A stretch of DNA of 64,000 nucleotides. It comes from Candidatus Poribacteria bacterium (GTDB lineage: Bacteria; Poribacteria; WGA-4E; JAJDTR01). Shown piece after piece: positions 14,535-47,034 of this stretch. The DNA is taken from NCBI GenBank assembly GCA_965208765.1, contig OZ242354.1, positions 1,383,343 to 1,447,342 of the forward strand, in the 5' to 3' direction. The notes beneath the pieces were generated by a model, which saw only the letters and a list, made by a program, of their open reading frames with translations, searched no databases and was not told where the DNA came from. A program made the position numbers and the translations under genes. Positions within the stretch are counted from its first letter, which is position 1, and every line of letters starts with the position of its first letter.

Positions 14535-14748
14535 CTAAACTCGGTAGGTGCGGTTTCCTAACCGCGCCGAGCATTGTTAGGATATTACCGAATTATTTTT
14601 TTTAACTTCATTTAGTGGTCTATTCGCTAAGAATTTAATGCTTACGAGACTGGCACAGAAAACTGTTCTACCACGCCGGTAGGTGCGGTTTCTAACCGCA
14701 CCGGCACCCAACTCTAACCATATTGTTTTGGAAAATAAACCATTTAGT
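14535..14748. repeat. 132-bp hairpin repeat family: degenerate half unit plus one full unit
   Basis: Contains ggtaggtgcggtttc(c)taaccgc and the full consensus gtggtctattcgctaagaatttaatgcttacgagactggcac...ccggtaggtgcggtttctaaccgcaccggcaccc...ggaaaataaacc. It matches the tandem array at 46496-47034. Confidence 0.85.
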
Positions 14749-22288: not shown

Positions 22289-24571
22289 CTATTTCAAAAT
22301 CACCATCCGGCGCGTAACGGAATAAGCGTCAGTCTCTAGCCGATAGAAATAAAGTCCCGACGCAACCGGTTCGCCAAGTCCATCTCGCCCATCCCAGTAC
22401 GCTGCACGGTTCCGACTCGTATACACGCCCGCAGGTTTGTGCCCGATCATCAGCGTTCGTACTCTCCGCCAGTTCATATCATAAATCGTCAACACTACCT
22501 CGGAGGGCTCCCCCAACTGATACGGTATCCATGTGTCCGGATTAAACGGATTGGGGTAATTCGGTAGCAATGCCGTCTGATTGGAAGTTAAAGAAGTGAC
22601 TGAGCGTGATAGTTCTAACAGTAGCCCGGTCTTATTGACGACTTCTATTCGTTTAACGCCGCCCCATGTCGTAGGAAGTCTGAGATCCCACAGCAGAACC
22701 GTGCTATCCCAACTCCCGCTGGCAAGCGTGTTCCCATCGGGAGAGAACGCTACAGAGTTGACTCTCCACCTATGTCCTGATAAGGTTCGTACCTGTTTCC
22801 CGGTGCGAACCTCCCACAGACGAACCGTTCTGCCGTAATTCCCGCTACCACTCGCAAGCATTCTTCCATCAGGCGAGAAGACGACACAAGTCACATCGTC
22901 CATATGGCAAGAGAGAGATTGCAAGTGTTCGCCGGTGATAGAATTCCACAAACGAATTGTACCGTCATCGCTTCCGCTAGCAATCGTGGTGCCGTCGGGT
23001 GAATATGCAACTGAATTTATCGTCCACTTGTGCCCGGCAAGAATCTTCGAGGTCTTTCCAACGCGGAGATCCCACACACGAATCGTTCCATCCCTGCTGC
23101 CACTGGCAAGCGTATATCCGTCGGGCGAGAATACTACGGAAGTGACTCCCTCCGTATGGCCGGAAAGAGTCCGCAAGTGCTCGCCGGTGAGAGAATCCCA
23201 CAAACGAATGGTGTTGTCGTGGCTGCCGCTCGCAAGCGTGAACCCTTCGGGCGAAAACGCAACCGTGTTAACTCCTTTCTGATGACCTTGAAGGCTGTGC
23301 AGGAGGTCCCCTGTACCCGAATCCCACAGACGAATCGTCTTGTCGTATTCCGCGCTCCCACTGGCAAGCATCATCCCATTGGGTGAGAAGGTTACCGAGG
23401 TGACCCAACCTGTATGCCCGGAAAAAATTCGCACAACTTTCCCGGTGCGCATGTCCCACAGACGGACGGTCCGGTCCCAACTTCCACTAGCCATTGTGTT
23501 CCCATCGGGAGAGAAGACAGCGGAGTTTATTCTGCCCGTTTGGCCCGCAAGAGCCCGAAAGCGTTTCCCTGTGCGAACATCCCAAATACGAACCGAGTTG
23601 TCGTAACTCCCACTGGCTAATGCGGACCCGTCAGCCGAATATGCTAAGCTGTGGACTCCCTCGGTGTGCTCCTCGAAGGTCATCAGGGCTTCCCCGGTGC
23701 GTGCATCCCACAACCAAATCGCCCCGTCATATCCTCCGCTGGCAAGCTCGTCTCCACCGGGTGAGAAGACTACGGAAGCAACTCTAGCTTTATGTTTTAT
23801 AAGCGTCTGAAGGTGTACTCCAGTGCGTGTATCCCACAACCGAATAGTGTTGTCGTGACTGCCACTGGCAAGTGTGAACCCATCAGGAGAGAAAGCTACG
23901 CTCCAAACTCCACCTGCGTGCCCTTCAAGGATCATCAGGGCTTTTCCAGTCCGAGCCTCCCACAGCCGAATTGTCTCGTCGGTACTCCCACTGGCTACCG
24001 CGCTTCCGTCGGGGGAAAACGCCACGGAAGTGATCATTTGCCTATGACCTTTAAGGGTGAGCAACTCTTCCCCTGACCGCACATCCCACAAACCAACCGT
24101 GTTGTTCCAACCGCCGCTCGCAAGTGTCAATCCGTCTGGGGAAAACGCAATGGAAGTGGCTCTGCCCGGATGTTTGAATGTCTGAAGGCGACGACCCGTA
24201 CGTGTTTCCCAGATTTGAATCGTATCAACATAAGATCTAAGGGAGAGTCTGGAATTAGAAAAACTGGCATTGGCAAACGTGTGCCCACTGGGCGAAAATG
24301 CCACGGCAGTGGTCCATCCCGTTTCTGCCGCATGTAGCGCGACTTCGACATCGGTGTTCGCATCGTAGAGCCAAACGCCGATGCTACCCCCGACCGCCAG
24401 CCACGCCCCATCAGGCGAATGCGCGATGTGGGATACAGAACCTTTGCCGAAACGTGCTGCGGCGCCGTCGGGCAGATACCAGCGGGTAACGTCGTGAGCG
24501 AAGCTGCTCCCGAACAACAAAGCAGAAACCAAAATAAGACCAAGCTTAACCAAGGAGTTTTTTCTCATCAA
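22289..24571 (-). CDS. WD40-repeat (beta-propeller) protein with C-terminal T9SS-type sorting domain
   Basis: Signal peptide. About 14 WD40 repeats (GH...SVAFSPDG...LASGSxDxTIRLWD). The C-terminal about 90 aa match the Por-secretion-tail/FlgD-Ig-like pattern (NYPNPFNP...GVYTS..WDGRD..GEPVASGLYFYRL). Confidence 0.85.
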   Translation of the reverse strand: MMRKNSLVKLGLILVSALLFGSSFAHDVTRWYLPDGAAARFGKGSVSHIAHSPDGAWLAVGGSIGVWLYDANTDVEVALHAAETGWTTAVAFSPSGHTFANASFSNSRLSLRSYVDTIQIWETRTGRRLQTFKHPGRATSIAFSPDGLTLASGGWNNTVGLWDVRSGEELLTLKGHRQMITSVAFSPDGSAVASGSTDETIRLWEARTGKALMILEGHAGGVWSVAFSPDGFTLASGSHDNTIRLWDTRTGVHLQTLIKHKARVASVVFSPGGDELASGGYDGAIWLWDARTGEALMTFEEHTEGVHSLAYSADGSALASGSYDNSVRIWDVRTGKRFRALAGQTGRINSAVFSPDGNTMASGSWDRTVRLWDMRTGKVVRIFSGHTGWVTSVTFSPNGMMLASGSAEYDKTIRLWDSGTGDLLHSLQGHQKGVNTVAFSPEGFTLASGSHDNTIRLWDSLTGEHLRTLSGHTEGVTSVVFSPDGYTLASGSRDGTIRVWDLRVGKTSKILAGHKWTINSVAYSPDGTTIASGSDDGTIRLWNSITGEHLQSLSCHMDDVTCVVFSPDGRMLASGSGNYGRTVRLWEVRTGKQVRTLSGHRWRVNSVAFSPDGNTLASGSWDSTVLLWDLRLPTTWGGVKRIEVVNKTGLLLELSRSVTSLTSNQTALLPNYPNPFNPDTWIPYQLGEPSEVVLTIYDMNWRRVRTLMIGHKPAGVYTSRNRAAYWDGRDGLGEPVASGLYFYRLETDAYSVTRRMVILK

Positions 24572-24602: not shown

Positions 24603-24956
24603 CTACTTTGAGCGTCGTTTGGTCGGACGATTGATTTTCTCGTATCGCATCTGCTTTTCGTGTTTCAGATAAAGTGGAAGCGTATCCCCTACCAGGCAGA
24701 GATGTCGATAGTCCTTGTAGTTTGGGTTGTGAAGTTGAAGCCGCTTGTGAAACTTTTTCGACCACTCTGTTCGCCAACTCAGCCGCTGGCTTGCGTTGCT
24801 CTCGACAATAGGCTCTGATTTTGTGTAGTTCTCTCGCATCTGTCGTACCTTCTCATCGAAACTGGTCGGTTCTTCAAGCCAACTCACTACCTTCCCGGAA
24901 CAGCCAGCAAGTGATAATAAACCGACTATGAATATCGTACTCAGCCATCGCGTCAT
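24603..24956 (-). CDS. small lipoprotein, hypothetical
   Basis: Lipobox LLSLAGCSG. It is encoded immediately upstream of, and on the same strand as, the WD40 gene. Confidence 0.45.
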   Translation of the reverse strand: MTRWLSTIFIVGLLSLAGCSGKVVSWLEEPTSFDEKVRQMRENYTKSEPIVESNASQRLSWRTEWSKKFHKRLQLHNPNYKDYRHLCLVGDTLPLYLKHEKQMRYEKINRPTKRRSK

Positions 24957-25093
24957 TCTTCCGCCCTTCCTTTCCAGCGCGGAAACTCCCGCATTATTCG
25001 AATAATCGATCGCCTACCATGCGGTTACCGAAGCAGGTAGTTGGGCCGATATGAGAATCGTATAACTCAAAGACCCGATAACAACACTATGAC

Positions 25094-25253
25094 ACTAAGT
25101 GGTCTATTCGCTAAGAATTTAGTGCTTCCGAGACTGGCACAAGAAACGGTTATACCGTTCCGGTAGGTGAGGTTTTTAACCGCACCGGCACCCAACAATA
25201 ACCATATTTTTTTGGAAAATAAATCACTAAGTAGCCTATTCGTTAAGAGCATG
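25094..25253. repeat. 132-bp hairpin repeat family: one full unit plus a partial unit abutting the IS left end
   Basis: gtggtctattcgctaagaatttagtgcttccgagactggcac...ccggtaggtgaggtttttaaccgcaccggcaccc...ggaaaataaatcactaagtagcctattcgttaagagcatg. Confidence 0.8.
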
Positions 25254-25263
25254 TTTGAAAAGT

Positions 25264-27092
25264 ACATTTGTAGGGTGCGCACGGCGCACCAGCCTTTAAA
25301 GCCCCAGTGGGGCGGAAGGTGTGTAGAAATACCGAAACCCTGTACGCCAAAGCCCCAGCGGGGCGACAGGTACATAGCGGTAAATTACAAAAACGCGTCT
25401 TCAAATGACTAAAAATGGCTTTGCTACCGAATTTTCAAACAGGTTCTAAGCTCGACTTTGTACAAAACTAGAAGGGGAATAAGGTAAAATTAGTCGAAAA
25501 AGCAACACCATTCGACTAAGGAGGTACACCTTGATTCCCCCATCGCTGATAACATTGTTAACTCCGTTTCAATCATTGTTTCGACGTCCTAGCTGGATTA
25601 AAATCCAAATCTTACTCGTTGGAACAATCCTTTTAACCGGTAGGCGAACAGTAACTCAAGCCCTGAGAGTGACCGGTCGGTCAGCCGACAATCGGTTTGC
25701 TCTGTATCACCACGTGCTTAGCCGTGCGGTTTGGTCCCCTCTGCAAGCCGCCCAAAAACTGTTGTTTACGTTATTGAAGTTCCTCGACGACGGTAAGCAA
25801 CCGTTAGTATTTGGCATTGATGAAACGATTGAGCGCCGCTGGGGAGCCAAAATCAAAGCACGAGGTATCTATCGTGATGCCGTGCGTTCTTCATCAAGCC
25901 ACTTTGTCAAAACCAGCGGATTACGTTGGATAGCGCTGATGTGGCTAACACAGATTCCCTGGGCATCATGTATCTGGGCGCTGCCGTTTTTGACGGCACT
26001 TGCACCCTCCAAACGTTACTATGAGTCTGAAAAACGTTGCCACAAGAAACTCACTGACTGGGCAAGACAAATTGTATTTCAACTTCGCCGGTGGTTGCCC
26101 AATCGTTACTTGGTTGTGGTCGCTGATTATAGTTATGCGGTGTTAGAATTCCTTGCAGCTTGCCAAGAATTGTCAAATCCGGTAACCATTATCACTCGTT
26201 TGCGACTTGATGCAGCACTCTACCAACCTGCTCCACCTTATAGCGGTACAGGACGTCCTTGTAAGAAAGGAGAGCGGTTACCTACCTTGGCTGACATTCT
26301 GCATGACCCAAACACCCAATGGCAGAACCTTGATTGGTATAACGGTCAACAAAGAGAAATGCAAATCATCTCACAGCCAACCGTTTGGTATCACACGGGC
26401 AAACCCCCGGTGTCAATCCGCTGGGTTTTGATACGAGACCCTCTTGGCAGTTATGAACCGATAGCCCTTTTATCAACTGACACAACACTTTGTCCCAACC
26501 AGATAGCCAACTGGTATGTTCGTCGCTGGCGAATGGAAGTCACTTTTGAAGAAGTGCGTGCCCATCTAGGCGTGGAAACACAAAGACAATGGTCGGATAA
26601 AGCGATTGCTCGCACGACTCCAATGCTATTTGGACTGTTCTCTTGGATTACCTTAGCTGCTCATCTACTGGTTCAACAGAATCAAGTAGAAGTGCGACAG
26701 GCTGCATGGTATCAGAAATCGTTAGCCACCTTTTCTGATGCAATAGGGTGGGTGAGACACCATTTTTGGTCTGCAGAAGCGGACATGACTTTTTCACAGG
26801 TCAACCAAAATGACCAGATGGTTAAAATCTCAACCGCTTTTCTCGAACGCTTGATTGACACCGTCTGTTATTCCGCTTAAATGTACAAAGTCGAGCTGAG
26901 AACCTGTTTGAATAATCGGTAGCGAAACCATTTTGGGGCATTTGTAGAAGTTTTTTCACGATTTTATTGTCTCCTGCTACGTACCTGTCGCCCCGCTGGG
27001 GCTTAGGTGCACGGGGTTTTGGCATTTCTATACACCTTCCGCCCCTCTGGGGCTTTTAGAGGCTGGTGCGCAGTGCGCACTCTACAAACGTA
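25264..27092 (+). mobile_element. IS4/IS701-like insertion sequence with about 210-bp terminal inverted repeats
   Basis: The left region (25264 to about 25470) and the reverse complement of the right region (26882 to about 27092) align along their whole length (tacatttgtagggtgcgcacggcgcaccagcc...gctcgactttgtaca). They flank a single DDE transposase ORF. Confidence 0.8.
25531..26880 (+). CDS. DDE transposase, IS4 superfamily (IS701-like)
   Basis: 449 aa. Candidate catalytic D (GIDETIERRWG), D (VVVADYSY) and E within a Y-x2-R-x3-E-x6-(K/R) motif (YVRRWRMEVTFEEVR). Confidence 0.85.
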   Translation: MIPPSLITLLTPFQSLFRRPSWIKIQILLVGTILLTGRRTVTQALRVTGRSADNRFALYHHVLSRAVWSPLQAAQKLLFTLLKFLDDGKQPLVFGIDETIERRWGAKIKARGIYRDAVRSSSSHFVKTSGLRWIALMWLTQIPWASCIWALPFLTALAPSKRYYESEKRCHKKLTDWARQIVFQLRRWLPNRYLVVVADYSYAVLEFLAACQELSNPVTIITRLRLDAALYQPAPPYSGTGRPCKKGERLPTLADILHDPNTQWQNLDWYNGQQREMQIISQPTVWYHTGKPPVSIRWVLIRDPLGSYEPIALLSTDTTLCPNQIANWYVRRWRMEVTFEEVRAHLGVETQRQWSDKAIARTTPMLFGLFSWITLAAHLLVQQNQVEVRQAAWYQKSLATFSDAIGWVRHHFWSAEADMTFSQVNQNDQMVKISTAFLERLIDTVCYSA

Positions 27093-27264
27093 CTATTCAA
27101 ACAGGTTCTAAACATTTACAATGAAAGAAACCTGGATTTCAAGGGAAAAGAGGAGGATTGAGGGAAAATCGAAGTGGGGAATGGATTACCAAAAAAGGAA
27201 TCCTCATTTTTCGAGGGAGGGGACGAACTTGGAGTATTTTAAGCGTCTCTGCGCTCCACAACTG

Positions 27265-29508
27265 TTATAACTCAACGGCTATGCCCAAGTAAGGGATAAT
27301 CGGGAATTGATAGATATCTTCTTTTTCGGTGTAATCGTCGTTGTAGCTGAAGTCGAGTAGGTTCTTGCGGTTATAGGCGTTCAACAGTTCGAGAAAGACG
27401 CGCATCTGCCAATTAGAAAAGCGAAAGGCCTTGCTAATCTTCACGTCCAGCCGATGATAGGCCGGCAAACGTGCTGAATTGGTCTCCGCGTAGATTGGGA
27501 CGTAGATGAATTCGTCGTTGCGCGGGTCGGATTTTAAGTCAGCCCCGAGCACCGGCGTGTAGGGATTGCCGGTCCGGTATTGCCATTTCGTGCCAATTTC
27601 CCAGGTTGGAGTCGGACTGTAGGTCGCCGCAAGCGTCGCCACGTGCGTTTGGTCGAACGAATAGAAGCGGTACGGTTCGCCGGGGCTATCCCGCCGTTTG
27701 GAGAGTCCATAGGCATAAGAACCCCAACCGAGGAATCGCTCCCCGGTTTGATGTCGTAGGAACACCTCGGTGCCCTGCGCGAACCCGACGCCCTGATTGA
27801 GATAATTTGCTTCGTCATCGTTGGTCACCAAGTCGACGAGGTTCTTGTAGTAACCGGCGAGCTTGATCTCGGTCGTCTCAGAGATTTCACGCGTATACTC
27901 CAGTACGTAGTGACTGGCTCGGCTGGTGCTCAACTCCGGGTTGCCGACGCTCCGCGTAAGCCTCGGCGGTGTCGGCACTTGCTGATAGTTGCCGTAGGAA
28001 AACTGGACCTGAGAACCCGGCGAGATTTCAAACAGGAGACTTCCGCGCGGTTGGATGGAGAGTCCGTCAATCTGATTCAAGTAATCCGTTCGCAAGCCGA
28101 GTACGACTGACAAAAATGGCAATACCCTGTATCGGTCTTGCAGATAGATTTCAAGTCGTTTTCCAAGTGAGGATTCGTCGATCGATTGCTTCTCGATAAA
28201 CCGGGGATCGTAATCGACTTCGCCCTCATCAGGCGGACGCAGAAAATTGCCGGTAGCCCTACCCGGTTCGAGTCCGAGTATCAAACCGGATTCAATCTGA
28301 TGTTTCGGCGTCAGCGTGTAGGTGAGGTCCTCGCGAATCACGTACTGCGGCGCATCAACTTTGAGCGATAGATCAGCGCCGATATTGACATCAAACGCGA
28401 AAAAGGAACGGGTCAAGGATAGATAGGAGGTCAAGCGGTCAGTGAGAAGGGAACGGAGGTGAATACCGGCTCCCTCGAAACCGCTGTCAAAGTCTATATT
28501 CCCTCTTAGATCCTCGTCCACATCTTCGCCATCCAGCTTGAGCGCGAAGCTGTCACCGGAGGCAAATAAATTGAGCGAGAGTTGATGCTTTTCAGAGAGG
28601 TTATAACCTCCCTTTATCTGATAATCCCAAAATCGGGGGAAGGCGGTGATTTGTCCGCTATCAAATGACAATGACCTGAGAAACAGGTCGATGTAGCTTC
28701 TTCGTCCGGCTGCATACCAAAATCCCTTGTCGCCAATCTTGCCTTCTAATAGCCCTTCGGAGTAGAGCAAATTGAGGTTGAATTTTGCATCGAAACCGTC
28801 CGTGTTTTTGTTCCTTGAATAGATGTCGATCACGGCCTGGGAGTCGACGCCAAATTCGGCGCCGTAACCGCCGGCGTAGACGTCAATCCGTTCAATGACT
28901 TCGGAACTGAGGGAGGAAACAATTCCGCCGAAATGGTAAGGGTAACCGATCGGCACCCGGTCAAAGTAATAGAGGTTGTCTGTATCGGCGCCGCCGCGGA
29001 TATACAGGGCGCCGCTAAAGTCGTTTGCCACACCGACAGCGGGCAAGGATTGTAGGGCGCGGAGAGCGTCTCCCGCCGTGCCGGGGACGCGCTGAATCTC
29101 TGCGCCGCCCAAACTCTGTCTGCCAACCGACGGCAAAGGACGATCGGTTGTAACCTCTACTTCGTCAAGGGGCACAACAACCGGCTCAAGTAAGATTTCA
29201 ACACGCGTGATTTCCGCCGGCGCTACGGTAGCCGGGGTATCCGTAGAAGGTAGGTATCGTGAAGCGTATGCGGCAAGGGTATAATGCCCGGGTGGCAGGT
29301 TGCGAATCTGAAACTCGCCGTTCGCATCGGTGAGAACGCGCTGACCGGTCTCGACGATGCGCACTTGTGCGGATTCGATGGGCTGTTTAAGATTCTGTTG
29401 AAGGACTGTGCCGTAGATTTCGCCGGATTGGCTTGAAGCCTGCTGTCCATATGCGATACAGGGACATAGGCACAATACGAATAGTATTTTAGTGCAAATC
29501 TGTTTCAC
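27265..29508 (-). CDS. TonB-dependent outer-membrane receptor with N-terminal carboxypeptidase-regulatory-like domain
   Basis: Signal peptide. CarbopepD_reg-like start (GEIYGTVL...ANGEFQIRNLPPGHYTL). Plug domain and a long barrel ending in a C-terminal aromatic residue (…IPYLGIAVEL). Confidence 0.85.
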   Translation of the reverse strand: MKQICTKILFVLCLCPCIAYGQQASSQSGEIYGTVLQQNLKQPIESAQVRIVETGQRVLTDANGEFQIRNLPPGHYTLAAYASRYLPSTDTPATVAPAEITRVEILLEPVVVPLDEVEVTTDRPLPSVGRQSLGGAEIQRVPGTAGDALRALQSLPAVGVANDFSGALYIRGGADTDNLYYFDRVPIGYPYHFGGIVSSLSSEVIERIDVYAGGYGAEFGVDSQAVIDIYSRNKNTDGFDAKFNLNLLYSEGLLEGKIGDKGFWYAAGRRSYIDLFLRSLSFDSGQITAFPRFWDYQIKGGYNLSEKHQLSLNLFASGDSFALKLDGEDVDEDLRGNIDFDSGFEGAGIHLRSLLTDRLTSYLSLTRSFFAFDVNIGADLSLKVDAPQYVIREDLTYTLTPKHQIESGLILGLEPGRATGNFLRPPDEGEVDYDPRFIEKQSIDESSLGKRLEIYLQDRYRVLPFLSVVLGLRTDYLNQIDGLSIQPRGSLLFEISPGSQVQFSYGNYQQVPTPPRLTRSVGNPELSTSRASHYVLEYTREISETTEIKLAGYYKNLVDLVTNDDEANYLNQGVGFAQGTEVFLRHQTGERFLGWGSYAYGLSKRRDSPGEPYRFYSFDQTHVATLAATYSPTPTWEIGTKWQYRTGNPYTPVLGADLKSDPRNDEFIYVPIYAETNSARLPAYHRLDVKISKAFRFSNWQMRVFLELLNAYNRKNLLDFSYNDDYTEKEDIYQFPIIPYLGIAVEL

Positions 29509-29734
29509 GTAGTGCTATTTTCCTCGCGTCCTTTTCAAGTCGACATTAATGACGTCAAATGGTCCGACCGTGTTTACACCTTGACGCCAAAAAAGATGCG
29601 AAAATAGAAGAAGCGTTGCATCGGCTGAAATTCCCTTGGATTTCTCGTATAGGTTTGGGTCAATCAGCAAAAAAGCCATAAGAGGCGCGATTATTGCACC
29701 TCGGCAATAACTCGGTTCTCGACACAAGTCTGTA

Positions 29735-29800
29735 GGGTGCGCACTGCGCACCAGTCTCTAAAAGCTCAGCTTTGGCGGAAGGTGTGTAGTAACACCTGAA
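29735..29800. repeat. solo fragment of the IS terminal inverted repeat outer end
   Basis: gtctgtagggtgcgcactgcgcaccagtctctaaaagc...ggcggaaggtgtgtag matches the outer about 70 bp of the IS terminal repeat. Confidence 0.6.
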
Positions 29801-29982
29801 TTTCGCCTACCTAAGCCATGACGGGATCAGGCCAGTCTATAGCGAGCGCGATAGCTGTCCGACAGGCATTTTGACGCGTAGCTACACCACGATGAAAAAG
29901 CTTGTCTTCAAAGGACTGAAAATTGCTTTGCTGCAACTAATAATACAGGATCTGACGATCGGTATAAAAAATTTCCTCCACT

Positions 29983-30605
29983 GTACATCTGTAGGGTGGG
30001 CACTGCCCACCATTTCCTTTACGGTGCGATCAATCGACTGGATAAGGGTCAACCGAGCGGACAATGAGGGCGGCAGAAAATACCGTGCGATTGAGCACCT
30101 ACCAGCCTTTGAAAGCAACAACGGCGCGACAGGTGCATAGCACCGGGGAGTTTACCACATTCAAACCTAAGTTGGTGGATAAATGCCCCATCCTCGGATG
30201 TTATGTCGCTCAAATTATAAGCTCGACTTTGTACATTTGAGCAGTATAACAGACGGTGTCAATCAAGCGCTGGAGAAAAACGGGTGAGATTTTACCCATC
30301 TGGTCTTATGGGTTGACGTGTGAAAAAGTCTTCGCTATAGACTAGAACTGGTGTTTCACGCAACCCGATGCATCGGGGCAAATCGCTGGCGATTTCTAAA
30401 AGCCTCTAACCTTTAGATCTCTATCGTCTTCGCTATTTGCTCAGTTGATCCCACGCCGGGGCTTTGGTTTAGTGTGGCTTGGCTTGCTATACACCTTTCG
30501 CGCCGCTGGCGCTCTCAAAGGCTGGAAGATCTCCATCGCGCTCATTATTCATTCACTTGATTGCAGTACGCACCTTACAAGAAATGGTGGGCAGTGCCCA
30601 CCCTA
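29983..30605 (-). mobile_element. internally deleted (non-autonomous) copy of the IS at 25264-27092, in reverse orientation
   Basis: A full terminal repeat (29983 to about 30245) is followed by the last about 60 nt of the transposase gene in reverse complement (encoding ...QRLIDTVCYTAQ). About 200 bp of unrelated sequence follows, then a terminal repeat outer end in the opposite orientation (30455-30605). Confidence 0.6.
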
Positions 30606-30622
30606 CAAATGTACAAAGTCGA

Positions 30623-30745
30623 GCTAAGAATTTAATGCTTACGAGACTGGCATAAGAAACGGTTCTACCACGCCGGTAGGTGCGGTTTCTAACCGCACCG
30701 GCACCCAACAATAACCATATTTTTTTGGAAAATAAACCACTAAGT
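30623..30745. repeat. 132-bp hairpin repeat family copy directly abutting the IS-derived terminal repeat
   Basis: gctaagaatttaatgcttacgagactggcataagaaacggttctaccacgccggtaggtgcggtttctaaccgcaccggcacccaacaataacc...ggaaaataaaccactaagt. Confidence 0.85.
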
Positions 30746-30955
30746 CGCCAAATGTTGAATGGTTCCATATTCAATACGTGAATAGATTCAAAATAGTCAA
30801 AGTCCGACTACGACGCGTAGGTAAGGCACGGCTTTTCGGTGTAGAATCGGCACGACAATCAAGTAAAGCAGTGTGACATTCAATCCGCAGAAAACGAAGA
30901 ATTTGGACGGAACTAGATTCCGTGCGAAACTTCGGAATGATGAGAGTTTTGATGC

Positions 30956-32953: not shown

Positions 32954-33405
32954 ATGAGAAGATTTCACCCGCACCTGTTCATCAGTTGTTTGTTAGTCAC
33001 TAGCTGTGCGACCTTGCTCTCGGAACAGCAATATATCCAAGTTGATGAGAAAGTCACAGAAACCGTTCTACCACGCCGGTAGGTGCGGTTTCTAACCGCA
33101 CCGGCACCCAACATAACCATATTTTCTTGGAAAATAAACCACTAATGTACTCAATTCCCGAGAAAAGAGAAATCCGGAGAATCATTATTTTGGGCGAAGG
33201 AACAGTGACTAATGTTGATATTTATGCTCGCAACTCGGAGAATAATTGGAAGCGAATTAAGAAAATCAAGAAGACTGTAGGATTTCCGATTGAAATTAAT
33301 GTAGTTCTAAAGGCCGACGCTGTTCGGATTAACCAGAAAAGAATACGAGGCAGGGGCAGCATCAATTCGGTCCGATTTTTCGCGCTTTCGAAAGAACAGC
33401 AGTAG
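32954..33405 (+). pseudogene. lipoprotein-family gene (paralog of 5960-6373) interrupted by insertion of a repeat-family copy
   Basis: The N-terminal fragment (MRRFHPHLFISCLLVTSCATLL...QVDEKVTE) and the out-of-frame C-terminal fragment (YSIPEKREIRRIIILGEG...INVVLKADAVRI) are both homologous to the 5960-6373 product. They are separated by a repeat copy of about 91 bp (33055-33146). Confidence 0.55.
33055..33146. repeat. 132-bp hairpin repeat family: hairpin-containing half unit inserted into a coding sequence
   Basis: cacagaaaccgttctaccacgccggtaggtgcggtttctaaccgcaccggcacccaacataaccatattttcttggaaaataaaccactaa. Confidence 0.8.
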
Positions 33406-46495: not shown

Positions 46496-47034
46496 CCACT
46501 AAGTGGTTCATTCGCTAAGAATTTAATGCTTACGAGACTGGCACAAAAAACTGTTCTACCACGCCGGTAGGTGCGGTTTCTAACCGCACCGGCTCCCAAC
46601 ACTAACCATATTTTTTTGGAAAATAAACCACTTAGTGGTCTATTCTCTAAGTATTTAATGCTTACGAGACTGGCACGAGAAACCGTTCTACCACGCCGGT
46701 AGGTGCGGTTTCTAACCGCACCGGCTCCCAACACTAACCATATTTTTTTAGAAAATAAACCACTAAGTGGTCTATTCGCTAAGAATTTAATGCTTACGAG
46801 ACTGGCACAAAAAACTGTTCTACCACGCCGGTAGGTGCGGTTTCTAACCGCACCGGCTCCCAACACTAACCATATTTTTTTGGAAAATAAACCACTAAGT
46901 GGTCTATTCGCTAAGAATTTAACGCTTGCGAGACTGGCACAAGAAACTGTTCTACCACGCCGGTAGGTGCGGTTTCTAACCGCACCGGCTCCCAACACTA
47001 ACCATATTTTTTTGGAAAATAAACCACTAAGTGA
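46496..47034. repeat. tandem array of 4.1 units of the 132-bp hairpin repeat
   Basis: Unit starts at 46496, 46628, 46760, 46892 and 47024, an exact 132-bp period. The units are over 90% identical and each contains the hairpin ccgg-ta-ggtgcggtt-tct-aaccgcacc-gg. Confidence 0.9.

Follow-up and report, generated by a model that had tools for sequence, protein, structure and literature searches.

An IS701-family insertion sequence apparently inserted at the junction of two inverted IS5-type MITEs in Candidatus Poribacteria

A transposase gene in the window (the whole 64-kb stretch of DNA that was analysed) is enclosed by inverted repeats of about 210 bp, which a reading made without database searches (the sequence-only reading) had taken for the terminal repeats of one unusual insertion sequence (IS). 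The locus very probably consists of three independent mobile elements and not of a single IS with long ends. What looked like ~210-bp "terminal repeats" are two small non-coding mobile elements (MITEs, miniature inverted-repeat elements), separate from each other and oppositely oriented, on either side of a short-ended IS; this IS701-type element seems to have landed precisely where the two MITEs met. Measured from arm through IS to arm, the locus occupies 25247-27108 (1862 bp), slightly more than the 25264-27092 given earlier. Its components and two nearby repeats are listed here with the basis for each in brackets; labels L001-L050 denote the loci carrying IS701-type relatives that were compared with the window.

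25100-25226, plus strand: 127-bp MITE-like unit of the '132-bp repeat' family, distinct from the arms (BLAST of the flank)
25244-25246: outer TAA, left 3-bp duplication of the left MITE (read from the sequence)
25247-25446, plus strand: left arm, a 200-bp non-coding MITE (IS5-type termini, flanks TAA/TAA)
25446-25450: CTAAG, left 5-bp duplication of the IS701-type element (CTNAG pattern among copies)
25451-26895, plus strand: IS701-family IS proper, 1445 bp (homology limits in 15 other full-length copies)
26896-26900: CTGAG, right 5-bp duplication of the IS701-type element (differs from the left copy at one base)
26900-27108, minus strand: right arm, a 209-bp MITE of the same family as the left arm (80.5% identity to the left arm)
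27109-27111: outer TAA, right-hand 3-bp duplication (read from the sequence)
30222-30623, minus strand: internally deleted IS701-type derivative, 402 bp (pattern search and BLAST)

The three elements interlock to the base. The C of the left CTAAG is the last base of the left MITE, the TAA that follows is the inner duplication of that MITE, and the G of the right CTGAG is the first base of the right MITE.

The inverted repeats around the transposase gene are real, and they are far longer than the 10-40 bp usual for the terminal inverted repeats of IS4-related families, IS701 among them (PMC2266710). They extend over 25242-25465 and 26881-27114, some 225-235 bp at 80-84% identity, with three collinear blocks between 25242-25464 and 26882-27113. 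The local alignment of the arms scores 226 against 19.4±2.2 in shuffled flanks (maximum 26; 200 shuffles), 201 of the 250 columns are identical in the gapped alignment of the flanks, and left and right arm are 80.5% identical when aligned globally.

The element within, 25451-26895, is an ordinary, complete member of the IS701 family. Its transposase ORF, for which the earlier coordinates (25531-26880) were exact, starts with TTG and encodes 449 amino acids. Described before as IS4/IS701-like, the protein falls in the IS701 family by its match to NCBIfam NF049999 (transpos_IS701_3; E = 4.5e-97, 325.5 bits against a cutoff of 170, residues 2-426), and it also matches Pfam DDE_5 (E = 1.2e-28). 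It is full length, with merely a 2-residue deletion relative to its relatives, and many D, E and R columns are invariant in their alignment. The left end of the IS (25451-25464, CTCGACTTTGTACA) and the right end (26882-26895, TGTACAAAGTCGAG) form a perfect 14-bp inverted repeat. Both the length and the ends lie inside the published ranges for IS701, a family that De Palmenaer et al. 2008 separated from IS4 and whose elements are 1400-1550 bp long (PMC2266710). Like that family, the window IS combines a DDE transposase and a length of 1445 bp with short ends and a short, sequence-specific duplication; a point of difference is its host, Candidatus Poribacteria. A look-up of identical proteins found no other record of the exact window transposase, and the nearest relatives from cultured bacteria are merely ~52% identical.

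The boundaries of the IS were defined by comparing 16 full-length copies (window, L001-L013 and L017) from at least five assemblies, with transposases 80-95% identical to that of the window. Similarity among these copies ends at CTCGACTTTGTACA and TGTACAAAGTCGAG, which lie inside the arms, and the outer flanks are unrelated between copies. The claim that the long repeats terminate the IS is thereby contradicted, and the inverted repeats of the IS proper measure 14 bp, not more than about 30 bp. CTNAG adjoins 31 of the 32 ends, and in 13 of the 16 copies the two CTNAG are identical and in direct orientation. Because its middle base is variable, differing among copies that encode the same protein, and yet matches in direct orientation, CTNAG is a target duplication and not a part of the element. 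The target-site duplications at the window locus, which the sequence-only reading had left to be identified, are 5-bp CTNAG for the IS (CTAAG on the left, CTGAG on the right) and 3-bp TNA for the arms. The closest relatives (L001 and L017, 94-95% identical) are without one or both arms, and the 94% DNA identity of L017 is confined to 25447-26902. More distant copies, with transposases 67-69% identical, have the same ends and the same duplication, and relatives from Nostoc and Microvirga (~51-52% protein identity) have 17-18-bp ends and 5-bp duplications (ATTAG, TTGAG).

Duplications of 5 bp occur in the ISAba11-type subgroup of the IS701 family. Unlike in typical IS701 elements, the duplication of the window subgroup is 5 bp (CTNAG; NTNAG in the wider subgroup) and thus one base longer than the 'exactly four' bp of almost all members, 'around five bps' having been given for the emerging families as a group (PMC2266710).

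These comparisons make it very improbable that the ~210-bp repeats serve a variant IS701-type element as functional ends. The long and significant inverted-repeat similarity does reach the transposase stop codon, and the degenerate copy at 30222-30623 has an arm-like hairpin module inside an IS701-type end, both of which would suit such a variant. Against it, the canonical 14-bp ends and the CTNAG duplication sit inside the arms; short ends only are found in the more distant relatives and in all 15 other full-length copies, where the best inverted repeat is 19-33 bp; and the arms have termini and a type of duplication that belong to another IS family.

That family is IS5. Elements of the IS1031/IS427-type IS5 subgroups are 850-1050 bp long, have GAG ends and duplicate a 3-bp TNA. 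Each arm proves to be a non-autonomous MITE of 200-209 bp with the termini of a TNA-duplicating IS5-family element. As the sequence-only reading had proposed, a MITE-like sequence is thus present in two inverted copies; each has its own short terminal inverted repeats. All four arm ends are GARCCTGTTTGAA, equal to the termini of an 887-bp element which codes for an IS5-family transposase of 258 aa (NF033580, E = 4e-61) and is present in L002 and L007. The terminal inverted repeats of the left arm are GAGCATGTTTGAAAAG on the outer side and, on the inner side, the reverse complement of GAACCTGTTTGAAAAT; those of the right arm are GAACCTGTTTGAATAA and GAACCTGTTTGAATAG. The left arm is flanked by TAA/TAA and the right arm by TGA (inner) and TAA (outer), with one mismatch. 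Matching TNA triplets also flank IS5-type elements with arm-type termini in L002, L005, L006, L007 and L015, among them elements of 140-284 bp with the same termini in L005, L006 and L015; the matching flanks of the autonomous and small relatives are TTA/TTA or TCA/TCA.

The arms are non-coding, overlapped by short spurious ORFs only, and the hairpins reported in them were confirmed: GGTGCGCACGGCGCACC lies at 25274-25290, and GCCCCAGYGGGGC occurs twice at a distance of 51 nt, the left arm containing three hairpins in all. Folded as single-stranded DNA, the left arm pairs its termini at -34.6 kcal/mol (z = -3.05), a stability reached by 0 of 200 shuffles. With 13-16-bp termini starting GAG or GAA, TNA flanks and a stable fold, the arms resemble IS5-family elements and MITEs, but their interiors, with REP-like GC-rich hairpins, are unrelated to that of the autonomous 887-bp element. 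Among the DNA compared, full-length copies of the arm MITE number two, both in the window; L015, L001 and L005 share ends of ~30-40 nt with the arms and differ in their interiors. No IS5-type partner transposase with these ends is encoded in the 64-kb window, so that the arms would need one in trans, and an Rfam search of 24800-27400 at E ≤ 1 gave no match.

From this layout an order of events can be proposed. Two MITEs would first have lain tail to tail with one TAA in common, such that the last C of the first MITE, the TAA and the first G of the second would together have read CTAAG, the centre of a perfect palindrome, TTCAAACAGGTT-CTAAG-AACCTGTTTGAA. The IS701-type element would then have entered this junction and duplicated CTAAG, one copy of which would later have become CTGAG. 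If the IS entered a pre-existing MITE pair, the ~210-bp 'terminal repeat' is that pair, split by the insertion. The sequence-only reading had the gene 'captured' by the MITEs; the IS is instead complete, with its own ends and duplication, and most likely entered an existing MITE junction.

Two mismatches, CTAAG against CTGAG and the TGA of the right MITE against TAA, count against the stepwise scheme; a later change of one and the same base explains both. Searches brought up no empty MITE-MITE junction in the Poribacteria DNA covered and no unoccupied palindromic MITE junction elsewhere in the window. Nine intact junctions were found in metagenome contigs, most with an IS5-type transposase gene adjoining, but they are palindromic over 19-26 bp only and none is a Poribacteria MITE pair.

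The reverse order, in which the IS701-type element entered CTAAG first and two MITEs later hit the TAA of each duplication, is attractive in that IS5-type elements duplicate TNA and every CTNAG duplication holds one, and sandwiches are known in both senses (L002 and L028 are IS701-IS5-IS701). It would place a C in front of the left outer TAA and a G behind the right one, where T and A are observed. The G that this order demands after the far TNA was lacking throughout a scripted comparison of the two window arms, L005, L006 and L007 (A, A, A, C and A), so that the test fails in the three other loci too; in L015 and L027 the base, read by eye from the printed sequence, is G. TNA is moreover too common for two independent hits on these particular triplets without attraction. 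On these grounds it is improbable that the MITEs came second.

Similarly improbable is movement en bloc, by which the whole of 25247-27108 (1862 bp) would have been carried by an IS5-type transposase acting in trans on the outermost MITE termini. These termini are intact inverted IS5-type ends, TAA/TAA stands outside the whole unit, and a MITE pair moving cargo in trans has an experimental precedent in the integron mobilisation units (IMU; PMC3184786). As in IMU and other MITE-flanked composites, two inverted MITEs bracket cargo at the window locus, with a matching duplication outside; unlike in IMU, the cargo is an entire IS that has ends and a duplication of its own, and the composite is known from one copy. 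No second arm-IS-arm copy was found in the limited data searched, the closest IS copies lack one or both arms, and the exact window protein is on record nowhere else. The match of the outer TAA is equally expected from stepwise entry into one original TAA, three of the four TNA triplets being TAA, and arms only ~80% identical imply that the MITEs are old or of different subfamilies.

The locus lies between a WD40-repeat gene, whose end is near 24571, and a TonB-dependent receptor gene at 27265-29508, and its surroundings are themselves rich in repeats. The repeat-family copy said to abut the left end is there, but is of a different family from the arms: the 25100-25226 unit is followed by CTAAG (25227-25231) and then by a second unit, of which the initial 11 nt are present (25232-25242). 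BLAST located further copies of this 132-bp family, 87-91% identical, at 14614-14748, 30623-30749 and 33058-33145, and at 46496-47033 the family forms a tandem array of 4.1 units. The idea that the composite interrupts one unit of this family was rejected, the right flank showing no continuation (score 15 against a null of 15.8±2.2). With a truncated unit as left outer flank and the rest of it absent on the right, at least one further rearrangement must have affected the locus.

The partial copies of the long repeat reported at 29735-30605 are real but heterogeneous, consisting of arm-like hairpin modules and the 402-bp IS701-type derivative. The latter (30222-30623), recovered by a pattern search that gave 4 matches against 0.01 expected, has both 14-bp ends, with ATAAG next to one and CTAAG next to the other. 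Of the IS it retains the final ~160-180 nt, mostly the 3' end of the transposase gene (78% identity to IS positions 1264-1444 by BLAST), and one of its ends is joined directly to an arm-like hairpin module. A degenerate third IS701-type end may possibly be recognized at 29973-29986, in the cluster 29729-30628.

The abutment seen in the window recurs. In ~150 kb of DNA (149.5 kb), chosen for surrounding IS copies, IS5-type ends adjoin 9 of 31 IS701-type flanks; at the other CTNAG sites they do so in 2 of 263 cases, or in 1 of 59 once sites within long ORFs are set aside. Three variants of the IS5-type terminus are involved, across different transposase lineages, and L034 and L036 have IS5-type ends on both sides; the two flanking copies in L034 are ~90% identical to each other and so are distinct copies. 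In the lineages L009-L013 and L041-L050 no such association is found. Somewhat less firmly than the order of events, these counts suggest that this IS701 subgroup would prefer a CTNAG adjoining the end of another transposon, possibly owing to the resemblance of IS5-type ends to the element's own. When the IS701-type end is compared with two of the IS5-type end variants, TTTG stands at positions 7-10 from the duplication; in the third variant, GAAACTGTTTTAAAAG, these positions read TTTT. It can tentatively be put forward, at somewhat less than even odds, that an IS701 subgroup of Poribacteria and further environmental lineages has the ends of other transposons as its homing sites, above all the palindromic junction of abutting ends, the preferred site being the last C of an IS5-type end, its TNA duplication and the next G.

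Set against end targeting alone, passive coincidence would have the IS needing just CTNAG, with IS5-type ends plus a G supplying harmless sites at which insertions survive. CTNAG is indeed scarce, with 263 sites in 149.5 kb, long ORFs contain about three quarters of them, and the two many-copy lineages without the association accord with coincidence. On the other hand, 8 of 16 events represent a large excess even over non-coding sites (1 of 59). Sites beside an existing end also seem to be favoured in L029, where two IS701-type copies have one CTGAG in common, and in the tandem array of the 132-bp family, where the spacers are single CTAAG. Coincidence is, on this evidence, rather unlikely.

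Parallels exist among elements that use repeats as targets: IS1397 and IS621 target REP sequences (PMC3184786), and ISPpu9 likewise targets repeated palindromic elements (PMC12288879). Like them, the IS701-type copies recur at a fixed spot with respect to a dispersed palindromic repeat, a placement that in each case keeps the IS out of genes. Unlike theirs, the apparent target here is a transposon terminus with its duplication and not a REP, the transposase is an IS701-family DDE enzyme and not of the IS3 or IS110 type, and the preference is statistical only.

None of the elements stands out by itself: they are an IS701-family IS not described before, MITEs of the IS5 type and one more MITE-like family, all from a candidate phylum associated with sponges. 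For annotation, the locus illustrates that nested mobile elements can mimic a new architecture, and that IS ends are best defined by comparing copies and not by the longest inverted repeat around a gene. Of modest interest is that two unrelated transposon families with a common target core, TNA within CTNAG, are repeatedly found abutting. Homing, if true, would be a 'safe-haven' strategy in which the footprint of another transposon family serves as landing pad; it would yield IS copies between inverted MITEs that mimic long-ended elements, and these could in principle be re-mobilised by an IS5-type transposase. A preference of one family for the ends of the other, if true, would help to explain how clusters of IS and MITEs and tandem MITE arrays grow without gene damage in repeat-rich genomes.

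The long inverted repeat around the transposase gene is real and lies far above chance: the two arms, inverted repeats of about 200 bp on either side of the gene, give a local alignment score of 226, as against 19.4±2.2 for shuffled flanks. The flanks form three collinear blocks (25242-25464 versus 26882-27113) with 201 identities in 250 columns of a gapped alignment, arm-to-arm identity is 80.5% in global alignment, and the hairpins and short terminal motifs that the sequence-only reading described within each arm are both seen in the sequence. Yet the headline of that reading, an insertion sequence (IS) with unusually long terminal repeats, does not hold, the repeat being no property of the IS.

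Features of the window (strand given for genes read from their translations)
14614-14748, 127-bp family, solo copy, flanks TTTAG/TTTAG
22289-24571, minus strand, 760-aa protein with many WD40-like repeats, judged by eye from translation
25100-25226, 127-bp family copy
25247-25446, left arm, 200 bp, flanks TAA/TAA
25274-25290, REP-like hairpin module
25446-25450, left duplication, CTAAG
25451-26895, IS proper (IS701-type), 1445 bp
25531-26880, transposase ORF, 449-aa protein
26896-26900, right duplication, CTGAG
26900-27108, right arm, 209 bp, flanks TGA/TAA
27265-29508, minus strand, 747-aa protein with the look of a TonB-dependent receptor, judged by eye from translation
29729-~29975 and 29982-30221, arm-like segments
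29736-29752, 29995-30011 and 30586-30602, REP-like hairpin modules
30222-30623, internally deleted IS701-type derivative, 402 bp
30623-30749 and 33058-33145, 127-bp family copies
46496-47033, 127-bp family, 4.1 tandem units with one CTAAG between neighbours

The window transposase matches the IS701-family model NF049999 of NCBIfam (E = 4.5e-97; 325 bits, cutoff 170) and also Pfam DDE_5. It is full length, retains all columns invariant among seven relatives, and departs from them only in a 2-residue deletion and a TTG start codon. A protein search yielded thousands of relatives, and the DNA around copies at graded distances was taken for comparison of element ends; these included proteins 95% (P0001), 92% (P0002), 85% (P0003, at five sites in one long-read metagenome) and 80% (P0004) identical to the window transposase, a partial protein (P0107, 95%) whose element is 94% DNA-identical to the window IS, and five copies from a Candidatus Poribacteria MAG. 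The strongest inverted repeat flanking the gene in these relatives usually spans just 19-28 bp; at one locus (L005) it reaches 33 bp, but farther out, within the flanks. Similarity among aligned copies has CTCGACTTTGTACA as its left limit and TGTACAAAGTCGAG as its right limit, the right one starting one base past the stop codon, and the flanks beyond are unrelated from copy to copy. Among 16 full-length copies, CT.AG borders 31 of the 32 ends. Its middle base differs among copies with identical protein and, in 13 of the 16, agrees between the two sides when they are read in direct rather than inverted orientation, which marks the motif as a 5-bp duplication of a CTNAG target. The armless copy at L017 matches the window at 94% DNA identity over 25447-26902 only. 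Element ends and CTNAG duplication are unchanged around transposases 67-69% identical, and plasmid-borne relatives at ~51-52% protein identity likewise have short ends and 5-bp duplications (Nostoc, 18 bp, ATTAG/ATTAG; Microvirga, 17 bp, TTGAG/TTGAG). In its published description the family has elements of 1400-1550 bp, short ends and very short specific duplications (PMC2266710). The window IS is thus an ordinary member of a subgroup making 5-bp duplications. At ~1440-1480 of L029 (ENA ERZ21829549 contig_11), two IS701-type copies stand head to tail with one common CTGAG (...TGTACAAAGTCGAG-CTGAG-CTCGACTTTGTACA...), which could be a tandem dimer or the outcome of insertion beside the end of the element itself.

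The four arm ends all conform to GA(A/G)C(C/A)TGTTTGAA. Arm-type termini of 13-16 bp also bound an 887-bp element in L002 (1530-2416) and L007 (3876-4763), which has matching 3-bp TTA flanks and encodes a 258-aa protein matching the IS5-family model NF033580 (E = 4e-61); with matching TNA flanks, they bound elements of 140 bp in L005 and L006 and of 284 bp in L015. Both arms are non-coding, and the computed fold of the left arm pairs its termini and includes its hairpins (z = -3.05). The arms are therefore miniature inverted-repeat elements (MITEs) of an IS5-type family, outside the IS701-type element; the earlier guess of MITE-like sequence on both sides of the gene was correct. The arms match no Rfam family, and the window encodes no IS5-type transposase. 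The REP-like hairpin module, TTTGTAGG-GTG[C/G]GCA-n-GC[C/G]CACC, is found in differing contexts, following an IS5-type terminus in the arms and an IS701-type terminus at 30586-30623, with similar sequence in L001 (3876-3906), L011 (3030-3059) and L017 (1152-1183); this module may represent a short palindromic repeat in its own right in Poribacteria genomes.

Without the IS, and with its duplication reduced to a single copy, the locus reads ...TTCAAACAGGTT-CTAAG-AACCTGTTTGAA... The ancestral state would have been two MITEs tail to tail with one TAA in common, and in CTAAG the C would be the final base of one MITE and the G the opening base of the other, with the TAA in between; the IS701-type element would then have entered CTAAG between them. 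The TNA triplets at the arms are TAA in three of four cases and TGA in one, a pattern that a single ancestral TAA plus one subsequent mutation is enough to produce. If instead the MITEs had inserted later, into the duplications of the IS, a C would precede the left outer TAA and a G follow the right one, whereas T and A are seen; the same test speaks against this order in L005, L006 and L007, but does not discriminate in L015 and L027, which have G at that position (read by eye). A Poribacteria MITE pair with no IS in between was found neither elsewhere in the window nor in metagenome contigs. In an alternative reading, the 1862-bp composite could move en bloc, its nearest known parallel being the MITE-flanked mobilisation units (IMU), but no evidence of such movement was found among the relatives compared. 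A caveat to the proposed order is that the left outer flank belongs to another repeat family, as a truncated unit whose remainder is absent on the right, and the locus therefore has additional history.

These elements lie intergenic between the genes at 22289-24571 and 27265-29508. The window also carries another, distinct family of MITE-like elements, with a unit of 127 bp (TGGTCTATTCG...AAACCA) plus 5-bp YTNAG, a target in common with the IS701-type element; its tandem array looks as if each new copy had entered the duplication beside an earlier one. A decayed cluster of nested elements occupies 29729-30628: in its 402-bp derivative an arm-like hairpin module is joined directly to an IS701-type end, inverted repeats of 47, 44 and 28 nt connect 29982-30239 with 30485-30633, and there is a possible further degenerate end at 29973-29986.

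Of 31 flanks of the 16 full-length copies, 9 have an IS5-type end directly against the duplication, representing 8 of 16 insertion events; among the other CTNAG sites of this ~150 kb the figure is 2 of 263, or 1 of 59 when only sites outside ORFs of at least 120 aa are counted. CTNAG occurs 294 times in 149.5 kb (window, L001-L013, L015-L017), 31 at IS ends and 263 elsewhere, about half a naive, not composition-based, expectation of one per 256 bases. Other transposase lineages show the adjacency again, there with other variants of the IS5-type terminus: GAGGGCATTTGAAAAT-type ends in L027, L028, L034, L035 and L036, and GAAACTGTTTTAAAAG ends in L051, L052 and L054. Inverted IS5-type ends stand on both sides in L034 and L036, as in the window; the L034 flanks are ~90% identical over the available 102 bp, which makes them separate copies rather than a hairpin created in assembly. 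The converse layout, an IS5-type element of ~887 bp between two IS701-type copies and sharing a TNA duplication with each, occurs in unrelated samples (L002, 75-3871; L028, 1501-~3800). In the Poribacteria MAG JAJDTR01, a 259-bp internally deleted IS701-type derivative (L015, 1356-1614; CTTAG/CTTAG) is directly followed by the 284-bp MITE (1613-1896), oriented like the window right arm. Counting from the duplication, positions 7-10 read TTTG in the IS701-type end and in two of three IS5-type end variants, and TTTT in the third. From the recurrent adjacency and the common TTTG, it is proposed that this IS701 subgroup favours CTNAG sites beside a transposon end. The proposal is a tentative one: it comes from a small sample built around IS copies, associations of this kind are inflated by selection against insertion into genes, and two lineages (L009-L013, L041-L050) have no adjacency.

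The nearest known kinds are the IS701 family for the window IS and IS5-family MITEs for the arms; the elements are new representatives of kinds already known. For the proposed end-targeting behaviour, the nearest systems are the REP-targeting ISs (IS1397, IS621, ISPpu9). The recurrent end-to-end association of two transposon families is of modest interest and merits a genome-wide look.
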